Below are positions 47,043-47,921 of a stretch of DNA of 64,000 nucleotides, piece by piece. A program made the position numbers and the translations under genes. The first letter of the stretch is position 1. Each line of letters starts with the position of its first letter. The DNA is taken from assembly GCF_019746665.1 (NCBI RefSeq), contig NZ_JAIERS010000019.1, forward strand, positions 2,138 to 66,137, in the 5' to 3' direction. The notes beneath the pieces were generated by a model. That model searched no databases and was not told the origin of the DNA. It saw nothing but the letters and a program-made list of their open reading frames with translations. The stretch is from Sphingomonas sp. Its GTDB lineage: Bacteria > Pseudomonadota > Alphaproteobacteria > Sphingomonadales > Sphingomonadaceae.

Positions 47043-47921
47043 TCAGTTGGAGGGGATGCCGACGATCACCAGATTGACGAACGAGGCCTGATCGTCCTGG
47101 GTGTTGCCCGAATCGTCGCTAACGAAGGCGCGCGCGTCGTTGAGCATCACCTTGCTCGTGTCGGTGCCGTTCAACGTCCAGCCCGAGCAACCCGCGCCGA
47201 TCGTCTTCACATGATGGTCTTTGCCCTTGAAGGTGACGGTGAAGCCGTTCACCAGCACGACCGCCTGCGACAGCGGCTTGCTGAATCCGACGGTCTGCGG
47301 GCTGCTGGTCTGCTGATTGGTGAGCATGACCATCTCGACCCCGGTTTCCGCATAATTGCCCGCGACGAGGATCGCATCGGCGCTTTCGGTGCTGGCGGAA
47401 TGGCCGCTGCTGTCGACCATGGCGGCATCAGCGCTGATCCTGCCGGTGTTGCCGTGGTTGGCGAAGCCCAGCGAGACCAGCAGCTGGCGCAGATGGTGGT
47501 CGCCATCGGCGAAGGCAAGCGCGAAGCCAGCCACCCCGGGTTGCGCGAATTTGAGCGAATTTCCCGGCAGCGCGATGTCCGGCGATTGCGTTCCGGTGAG
47601 GATGCCGTCGACCGTGGCGAGCGCCAGGTTATTGTCCGCCGCGTCGGTATTGGCGATACAGACGAGCCCGACCACCGAGTCCGCCTTGTCGATCAGATTG
47701 CCCGAATCGTCGACCAGTTGGGCGGTGACGCTGGCCTGAACTTCATTATTGCTCCAGCTTGGTTGAATCGATAGACTGATTTTCTTGATATGATGGTCGT
47801 CATTTCCATAAGTCATGCTGAAGAACGATATACCAATGACGTTGGATAACACCGGCCGATCAAATACAAATTTCGCCGTCTGATTAAGATTGATCGAGGT
47901 CGATTTCACTTCGATTGCCAT
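47043..47921 (-). CDS. Hypothetical protein built from three ~97-aa tandem repeats, each with a DHH motif
   Basis: AAGGAG lies 7 nt before the ATG at 47921; the track start at 47927 is a TTG. Repeat landmarks in track numbering are DHH at aa 44, 143 and 237, and D[DS]SG at aa 73, 172 and 271. It lies 111 nt upstream of the giant gene on the same strand. Confidence 0.7.
   Translation of the reverse strand: MAIEVKSTSINLNQTAKFVFDRPVLSNVIGISFFSMTYGNDDHHIKKISLSIQPSWSNNEVQASVTAQLVDDSGNLIDKADSVVGLVCIANTDAADNNLALATVDGILTGTQSPDIALPGNSLKFAQPGVAGFALAFADGDHHLRQLLVSLGFANHGNTGRISADAAMVDSSGHSASTESADAILVAGNYAETGVEMVMLTNQQTSSPQTVGFSKPLSQAVVLVNGFTVTFKGKDHHVKTIGAGCSGWTLNGTDTSKVMLNDARAFVSDDSGNTQDDQASFVNLVIVGIPSN

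Follow-up and report, generated by a model that had tools for sequence, protein, structure and literature searches.

RHS/YD cocoons are well studied in Tc toxins, in the Rhs effectors of type VI secretion systems, in teneurins and in the mosquito SGS proteins, and an open issue is how those cocoons that come without TcA, VgrG/PAAR or a signal peptide reach their targets and get inside them. In Tc toxins, receptor binding and delivery are given by a separately encoded upstream component; TcA is about 2500 amino acids (aa) long, largely helical and pentameric, and forms a translocation channel. SGS1 is an abundant protein of mosquito saliva that has been implicated in pathogen transmission, by a mechanism that is, to our knowledge, unknown. 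Its structure revealed a Tc-BC-like shell. Predicted transmembrane helices, partly folded, are stored inside this shell, which also carries several binding domains, among them an N-terminal beta-propeller (residues 1–344) that sits on it, and the bacterial homologues of SGS1 were described as mostly much shorter (PMC9935623). Here, we analyzed a 64,000-nucleotide (nt) stretch of Sphingomonas sp. DNA (contig NZ_JAIERS010000019.1; hereafter the window), in which a gene for a 292-aa protein of three repeats, termed the partner, precedes a gene for a 2784-aa RHS/YD-shell protein, termed the giant. The two genes form a near-obligate pair that moves or is inherited as one cassette, and the partner represents, as we rate it, an unannotated and previously undescribed bacterial family, a new accessory-protein family for RHS cocoons. 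We tentatively favour, at a little under an even chance, that the partner provides an SGS-like cocoon toxin, encoded by two genes, with a lectin-like subunit for targeting or docking. The elements of the pair are:

47043..47921, minus strand: partner coding sequence, 292 aa, three-repeat protein predicted to be all-beta (open reading frame (ORF) list and translation; stop codon at 47043–47045).
46932..47042, minus strand: intergenic spacer between partner and giant, 111 nt, without a terminator-like site (sequence read-out).
38577..46931, minus strand: coding sequence of the RHS/YD-shell giant, 2784 aa, SGS1/SGS4-like (TIGR03696, PDB matches, collinear homologues at all partner loci).

The pairing was assessed from the partner side, in 18 distinct lineages that carry a full three-repeat homologue with enough flanking sequence. 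A homologous, collinear giant lies directly downstream on the same strand in 16 of them: the window, SG_bin6, the Sphingomonas kyeonggiensis group, a cyanobacterial metagenome-assembled genome (MAG), Frateuria, a Paraburkholderia MAG and ten metagenomic lineages. The initial annotation, made from the letters of the window, had placed the giant 111 nt downstream, a gap that is exact, and had suggested that the upstream protein could be an adaptor, chaperone, receptor-binding or plug component for it; its proposed co-occurrence check thus returned the opposite of homologues that are never adjacent to RHS genes. The paired loci span 40–72% guanine-cytosine (GC) content and include named Alpha-, Beta- and Gammaproteobacteria as well as a cyanobacterium, the gaps between the genes range from 13 to 564 nt, and the giants comprise 2720–2840 aa where complete. 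A related-locus search with a 10-sequence partner alignment yielded 5 genome and 9 metagenome loci. The pairing is kept down to 24% partner identity, and partner and giant diverge in step, their respective identities to the window proteins being 77/79, 43/44, 39/44, 37/43, 33/38, 27/26 and 24/33%. In blastn comparisons, the DNA homology to Sphingomonas kyeonggiensis covers window positions 47932–38590 only, which is exactly the two genes, and flanking genes are not conserved around the cassette among the loci inspected. The partner gene itself is under purifying selection, the ratio of non-synonymous to synonymous substitution rates (dN/dS) being about 0.18 (0.17–0.19 against the ~77%-identical orthologues of the Sphingomonas kyeonggiensis type). 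Judged from this conservation of order and divergence, partner and giant very likely work as a pair.

We then characterized the partner protein. The three ~97-aa tandem units that the initial annotation had noticed, together with the example strings it quoted, are present at the following positions, as delimited by motif positions, repeat statistics and the repeat alignment:

47634..47921, minus strand: repeat 1, residues 1–96, with DHH at 47790–47798 and DDSG at 47700–47711.
47340..47633, minus strand: repeat 2, residues 97–194, with DHH at 47493–47501 and DSSG at 47403–47414.
47046..47339, minus strand: repeat 3, residues 195–292, with DHH at 47211–47219 and DDSG at 47106–47117.

The DHH motif begins at residues 42, 141 and 235 and the D[DS]SG motif at residues 71, 170 and 269, giving a period of 94–99 residues. 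Smith-Waterman comparison of the units against 500 shuffles yielded z-scores of 11.3 (units 1 and 2), 13.9 (1 and 3) and 5.6 (2 and 3), with 0, 0 and 1 of the 500 shuffles equalling the real score, and a BLASTP self-comparison failed to detect the repeats. The repeats are real, their similarity lying far above that of shuffled sequences. A word-indexed search with the single protein retrieved 22 clusters, all of 281–301 aa and none with a Pfam domain, while an exhaustive search with a hidden Markov model profile reached 614 representative clusters at E≤1e-3 and 161 at E≤1e-30, nearly all of 280–320 aa; the best 150 of the 614 were listed and examined. Neither the single protein nor the full-length or one-repeat profile matched Pfam, NCBIfam, PHROGs, PADLOC or PDB sequences, in line with the earlier statement that no family could be recognized, and scanning 130 family members one by one returned no significant match to any library family. 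Likewise, tblastn with the partner found no match in 50,697 phage or 72,556 plasmid records, and a literature search found no paper describing the family. As also remarked initially, the protein is not cysteine-rich, with two Cys only, and inspection by eye revealed neither a signal peptide nor a transmembrane segment.

The motifs proved less constant than first described. The DHH had been called invariant, and this holds for the 19 closest homologues, in which neither DHH nor DxSG varies in any of the three repeats, save for one DQH. It does not hold across 155 diverse members, where DHH keeps its Asp and first His in 73–82% and its second His in less than 60%, and DxSG keeps its Asp in 86–92% and its Gly in 65–81%; all six motif elements are retained in only 43 of the 155. 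The family signature is thus D-H plus D-x-S-G per repeat, with individual sites often lost. Many single-copy members have lost motifs while staying full-length and clear homologues, a pattern that fits ligand sites better than fold determinants. When motif losses were compared between repeats, to separate sites within a repeat from sites at an interface, everything was correlated, probably through shared ancestry and alignment noise.

An AlphaFold2 model of the whole chain, built from a 19-sequence alignment, reached a predicted local distance difference test (pLDDT) score of 94.1 and a predicted template modelling (pTM) score of 0.92, and shows 17 strands, about six per repeat, with no helix of four or more residues; the packing of the units against one another is predicted with high confidence. 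For a single unit, modelled with a standalone one-repeat homologue as query and 39 aligned repeats, the pLDDT was 96 and strands were placed at residues 3–13, 17–21, 25–37, 47–59, 62–73 and 85–95. According to these models, the partner is predicted to consist of three ~97-aa, six-stranded beta-sandwiches, packed round a pseudo-threefold axis such that the chain represents a single-chain version of a homotrimer. In the modelled strand order, strands 3 and 4 of each repeat are joined by a hairpin that holds DHH, and DxSG closes strand 5, from which a short turn leads to strand 6. Because consecutive strands are antiparallel, the DHH and DxSG loops would share one end of the sandwich and both chain termini would lie at the opposite end, a placement deduced from strand order only. 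The initial description of the protein as mostly beta and as three beta-sandwich or lectin-like modules agrees with these confidently modelled units and with the H-type-lectin-like TcpB/CofB domains among their nearest structures, the matches themselves being weak (TM-score below 0.5, E of at least 1e-3).

Foldseek comparison of the partner models with the PDB yielded no match with E <1e-3. For the whole chain, the best matches were the C-terminal domain of PCSK9 and the APC-beta domain of apicomplexan perforin-like proteins, with TM-scores of 0.28–0.38, probabilities up to 0.98 and about 10% identity (3p5b_A, E 1.5e-3; 7pln, target-normalized TM-score 0.38). Like the partner, each is a single chain of three tandem beta-sandwich subdomains, with pseudo-threefold packing and a binding rather than a catalytic role, and the titles of the PDB entries name receptor-complex and perforin-like proteins; in contrast to the partner with its two Cys, the PCSK9 domain is rich in disulfides and histidines, and the host proteins and their biology are unrelated. 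For one repeat, the best matches were the C-terminal domain of TcpB/CofB (6mic, 7w63, 5ypz; query-normalized TM-score (TMq) 0.43–0.46, probability up to 0.98), the C-termini of the Det7 and phi297 tailspikes and the foot of the R-type pyocin fibre (fibre and tailspike tips: 6ct8, 6cl5/6cl6, 6f7k, 4ru5), altogether with TMq 0.41–0.46 and E 0.03–0.17. All of these we take to be trimeric binding tips, and the pyocin fibre and tailspike C-termini are trimeric receptor-binding structures. Unlike them, the partner has neither a fibre shaft nor an attachment domain, and no match among PHROGs or phage genomes, the likeness extending to a one-repeat homologue that sits in a prophage near tail and lysis genes. 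CofB deserves closer comparison, as its domain 3, like the partner repeat a beta-sandwich, was called an H-type lectin fold by the authors of the CofB study, and CofB works as a trimer with grooves between its protomers, where it binds not a sugar but CofJ, a secreted protein of the same operon, by its N-terminal peptide (PMC6048534); TcpB is paired with TcpF. The CofB domain has nine strands plus a helix and sits at a pilin tip, whereas the partner is a free-standing chain of three fused units next to an RHS cocoon; the structural match is weak (E of at least 0.03 and TM-score below 0.5), and the two share no sequence similarity. The six-stranded antiparallel beta-sandwich of about 100 residues that characterizes H-type lectins is predicted in the partner; its sequence gave no match to the H-type lectin family (PF09458) at E up to 1 and did not reach the gathering score. 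These nearest folds are resemblances, not membership. A Foldseek search of predicted viral structures gave nothing interpretable, and XepA of PBSX, whose gene neighbours xhlA, appeared in a Foldseek list and was rejected as a relative (TM-score 0.13).

Beyond the three-repeat form, we found one-repeat proteins of 93–100 aa carrying both motifs in Jeotgalibacillus marinus (L020, 6621–6902), in Hazenella sp. (P0170; L034, 10001–10291) and in one metagenome sequence, the Bacillota copies having DHH and D-G-SGN motifs. The Hazenella gene resides in a prophage, after the tail genes and between an XhlA/holin-like pair and an Amidase_2 endolysin gene. Such standalone forms are expected if the fold is a trimer, and the three-repeat chain would fit an origin by triplication of a trimerizing unit; three fused repeats, the pTM score, pseudo-trimeric best matches and the one-repeat homologues would all fit a trimer-like assembly. 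The partner would then be a case in which triplication merged a trimeric binding fold into a single chain, while Bacillota still have the one-repeat form. In two unrelated lineages, tandem three-repeat paralogues precede one giant (L005-7, with genes at 8942–9808 and 10001–10876 of L005; L035, 66–962 and 974–1930), and both L035 paralogues are without DHH/DxSG motifs in some repeats. Extended forms are rare and add either a C-terminal stretch with sub-threshold likeness to fn3 or an N-terminal 580-aa region with a hydrophobic segment. Individual examples are P0113 (865 aa, L032) and P0090 (495 aa) with long N-terminal extensions, one of them with a hydrophobic segment, and P0168 (407 aa, L033), whose C-terminal extension contains the weak fn3-like stretch. 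In P0066 (571 aa), the first two repeats are joined to a segment resembling the distal part of the giant, which reflects a deletion fusion or a chimeric assembly.

In the giant, two parts of the C-terminal region could be delimited:

39426..39653, minus strand: RHS repeat-associated core, residues 2427–2502, ending in a PxxxxDPxG auto-protease motif (TIGR03696).
38580..39428, minus strand: C-terminal cargo, 283 aa (residues 2502–2784), Gly/Ala-rich and hydrophobic (conserved motifs, SGS4/SGS1 alignment).

The core scored 54.2 bits against TIGR03696 (Rhs_assc_core; cut-off 32.5), and the core together with the auto-protease motif ending the shell is the hallmark of RHS/YD-shell cocoons. Homologous giants carry PF25023 (TEN_YD-shell), and the window giant gave no Pfam YD match at E up to 1. 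Its best PDB relatives are SGS1 (8fjp, E 1.4e-33) and SGS4 (9on3, E 6.5e-26), the next RHS structure following at E 5.7e-5. The SGS1/SGS4 alignment continues from the core into the hydrophobic stretch, and the first ~115 cargo residues are collinear with the start of the predicted transmembrane, daisy-chained helix stretch of SGS1. The C-terminal domain of 250–340 aa is conserved in all family giants and not polymorphic, with the shared motifs SIWAQVGIG, QYDIQHGRDFTAKGFF, QHQPWYQGL and AYAIYG...GY.VWG. At the other end, the giants share the N-terminal peptide PA(I/V)R(T/S)FQ(M/F/L)D; comparison of the giant N-terminus with SGS1/TcB by phmmer and by a 12-sequence profile gave no PDB match, the N-terminal two thirds not being alignable to SGS1 by sequence. 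No signal peptide was visible on the giant. The C-terminal tail had no Pfam match, so that no Tox-SGS domain was detected where SGS1 has one; in SGS proteins this arthropod domain comes after the shell and ~230 aa of conserved, predicted transmembrane helices. A homology search with the core and C-terminal region was swamped by low-complexity candidates and returned 2 matches. On the strength of these alignments, the giant appears to be a bacterial relative, at full length, of the SGS1/SGS4 proteins of mosquitoes, and is better described as an SGS1-like cocoon whose membrane-helix cargo is conserved than as a typical polymorphic RHS toxin. The unannotated 614-cluster partner family is tied almost one-to-one to one cocoon clade, a bacterial relative of SGS1, and the two-gene cassette would offer a tractable bacterial system for the function of both a "transmembrane-helix" cargo and an accessory subunit. 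The partner gene lies 5' of the giant in a position equivalent to that of the N-terminal propeller of SGS1, as inferred from lengths and alignment offsets only; it is a separate gene, its product is by prediction not seven-bladed, and 8fjp is absent from the Foldseek lists. WD0512 of Wolbachia was considered as a partner and rejected, as it is itself one piece of a giant whose other piece is WD0513, and the gene upstream there encodes an ankyrin protein (PMC2647948, PMC3482391).

Taken together, these observations suggest a model in which the partner would be co-transcribed with the giant 111 nt downstream and serve as its accessory subunit. The giant would form an SGS1-like RHS cocoon of the Tc-toxin BC type, its encapsulated cargo being a conserved bundle of membrane-inserting helices. 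In each repeat of the partner, the DHH-type turn and the D-x-S-G-(N/H) loop could together build a polar pocket, giving up to three equivalent pockets on one face, comparable to that of trimeric lectins and of phage and pyocin receptor-binding tips. Via this face, the partner might bind a surface ligand, be it a glycan, possibly in a metal-dependent manner, or a peptide, and couple the ligand to the cocoon. It would thus be the receptor-binding component of a minimal two-gene toxin without TcA. The logic would be similar to that of Tc toxins, in which an RHS cocoon with an auto-proteolytic core surrounds the cargo (PMC9935623), and to that of CofB/CofJ, in which a trimeric, lectin-like fold holds the product of a neighbouring gene in the operon. 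The partner bears no resemblance to TcA itself, being of 292 aa, predicted all-beta, without a hydrophobic segment or a Pfam match and unrelated in sequence, and no TcA-like gene was present in any inspected locus. A more ambitious version, which we regard as unlikely in its entirety, is that of a new class of binary, TcA-less cocoon toxin delivering membrane helices without a dedicated secretion system, in which the partner, a new single-chain, trimer-like lectin fold, provides both receptor binding and triggering, and which is the free-living bacterial counterpart, possibly the source lineage, of the mosquito SGS proteins.

Several observations weigh against a targeting or docking subunit. 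Binding of the partner to the giant, binding of a ligand by the motif face and the targeting role are inferred, and the sole transcript hint is a low-depth contig that crosses the spacer (46783–47185) and comes from a run only guessed to be RNA, in which DNA may be present, making it weak evidence. All fold matches are weak (TM-scores of 0.28–0.46), bona fide H-type lectins such as Helix pomatia agglutinin and discoidin are absent from the Foldseek top 50, and the Pfam H_lectin family was reached by 2 of 130 members, at E about 0.1 only. With no visible signal peptide on partner or giant, a targeting subunit would lack an obvious route to its target. One-repeat homologues occur without any giant nearby, one of them in a prophage lysis region, which implies that the domain has a giant-independent function. 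Finally, two loci depart from the canonical arrangement: on the metagenome contig L028, the order is reversed, with a giant followed after 96 nt by the partner and, 326 nt further on, by the contig end, and the fused P0113 has no same-strand giant in its short flank (3.9-kb contig).

The main rival is a function on the producer's side, in which the partner would serve the giant as chaperone, as assembly factor or as a gatekeeper that binds, for example, the N-terminal peptide or the shell exit of the giant and keeps the cargo locked or the giant soluble until release, without any part in target recognition. We consider this doubtful, yet more probable than immunity, enzymatic activity or mere co-mobility. 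It would account well for the strict upstream pairing and the co-divergence with the giant, for the missing signal peptides on either protein and for the high conservation of the giants' N-terminal peptide; CofB/TcpB, the closest one-repeat analogue, also sets a precedent by holding the peptide of its operon partner in the trimer grooves rather than a sugar. It accounts poorly for one-repeat homologues without a giant and for motif sites that are often lost while the pairing stays. Moreover, the SGS1 structure indicates that the hydrophobic cargo is already enclosed by the shell, and the Eag/DUF1795 (EagR) chaperones, encoded upstream of RHS effectors whose transmembrane helices are N-terminal, are unrelated to the partner, which has no Pfam match, the hydrophobic segment of the giant being C-terminal, after the RHS core. 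That the partner instead protects its producer, as an immunity protein or antidote, from the hydrophobic C-terminal cargo of its giant seems improbable. Cargo and partner are both conserved family-wide, compatible with a fixed toxin/antidote pair, and no other small gene, immunity-like or otherwise, accompanies the giants in conserved fashion, downstream or elsewhere, at the loci inspected. The partner, however, lies upstream in 16 of the 18 lineages, whereas the immunity genes of RHS, teneurin-like and polymorphic toxins are small and lie downstream (PMC13018210), and the co-variation of such a gene with a polymorphic C-terminus has no counterpart here, where the C-terminal domain shows no polymorphism. 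Membrane-inserting helices are furthermore unlikely to be blocked by a pseudo-trimeric, soluble beta protein of 292 aa, the one-repeat relatives and rare extended members do not fit an antidote, and Wolbachia relatives of the giant were reported without immunity genes (PMC3482391).

A metal-dependent enzyme, for example a hydrolase that attacks a surface polymer of the target cell through catalytic Asp-His-His and Asp-x-Ser-Gly motifs, appears still less probable. The threefold recurrence of Asp, His and Ser, invariant in the close subfamily, is what one would expect of such sites, but the second His is poorly conserved across the family and whole motifs are lost in many members. Neither DHH phosphoesterases (PF01368), which have an alpha/beta domain with DXD, D, DHH and D motifs, nor any other enzyme family of Pfam or NCBIfam was matched, and the predicted plain, all-beta sandwich finds its best matches among binding modules. 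Least probable of all, in our estimate, is that the partner gene came from a phage and just accompanies the giant, its function being independent. This notion draws on the Hazenella prophage homologue between holin-like and endolysin genes and on base composition, the partner gene having 58.6% GC (77.5% at third codon positions, GC3), 10 points below the giant (68.6%; GC3 86%) and the window as a whole (68.6%). A casual passenger would hardly keep its order and strand from phylum to phylum, at identities as low as 24% and with as little as 13 nt between the genes, nor would the unit of homology between distant hosts be exactly the two genes, and the phage and plasmid records are devoid of matches. 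A lectin-like targeting or docking subunit thus remains our favoured, if tentative, reading.

Upstream of the partner, the cassette begins with a markedly AT-rich region of ~160 nt:

47922..48085, minus strand: AT-rich 5' leader/promoter region of the cassette (sequence read-out, promoter scan, blastn boundaries).

The ATG at 47921 was taken as the partner start because homologues begin with MAIE or MPIE; an in-frame TTG 6 nt upstream, at 47927, gives the longer version of the ORF finder. A Shine-Dalgarno sequence, AAGGAG, lies at 47929–47934, 7 nt before the ATG, and a sigma-70-like site at 47947–47975 matches at 9 of 12 positions, the number of promoter-like sites in the upstream region being that expected by chance. 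Position 48085 is the upstream limit of blastn homology with the SG_bin6 copy. Within window positions 46000–48400, short low-depth contigs match parts of the partner, of the spacer and of the 5' end of the giant at 95–99% identity. The runs that yielded them are labelled as probable RNA, each time of an unrelated organism, and the contigs probably derive from a contaminating relative of this drinking-water or freshwater bacterium. Two ORFs on the plus strand opposite the partner (46821–47774 and 47356–47739) are shadow frames typical of high-GC DNA. Further upstream, a 941-aa ORF (48522–51347, minus strand) is over-extended, its Pfam-matching part being the 612-aa stretch 48522–50360, a dihydroxy-acid/6-phosphogluconate dehydratase.

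We also inspected the surroundings of the cassette. Directly downstream of the giant, the window encodes a 444-aa Hsp70/MreB-like ATPase (37036–38370, minus strand) with a weak PADLOC match to PDC-M61B (E 0.003), followed by a 448-aa ORF without Pfam match (35001–36347, minus strand); neither gene is conserved beside the cassette in other genomes. In SG_bin6, which is ~96% identical (window 37043–38416 and 38581–48085 compared with L016 8034–9402 and 9836–19338), the Hsp70-like gene is inverted and sits at the opposite flank of the cassette, next to the partner and with the ilvD-like gene beyond it, indicating local rearrangement around the cassette. Repeats at the cassette borders were sought, and nothing meaningful was found. 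Opposite 35620–37013, SG_bin6 (L016, 19493–20884) has an ORF that by eye resembles an ABC-type ATPase, and the 448-aa ORF of the window may be a shadow frame. Partner and giant of SG_bin6 (L016/L021, 10001–10886 and 10975–19342) are both frameshifted, the partner being annotated with 213 aa, which reflects either assembly errors or a decaying copy. On the metagenome contigs whose partner is ~77% identical to that of the window (L001/L002, 2293–9326), a 1951-aa protein without Pfam match and a DUF4915 protein precede the cassette, both being absent from the window. In a lineage of 42% GC (L030/L031, 19161–20317), two DUF2589 genes follow the giant, and transposase genes of the IS66 and IS3 types, together with a patatin gene, lie around the cassette.

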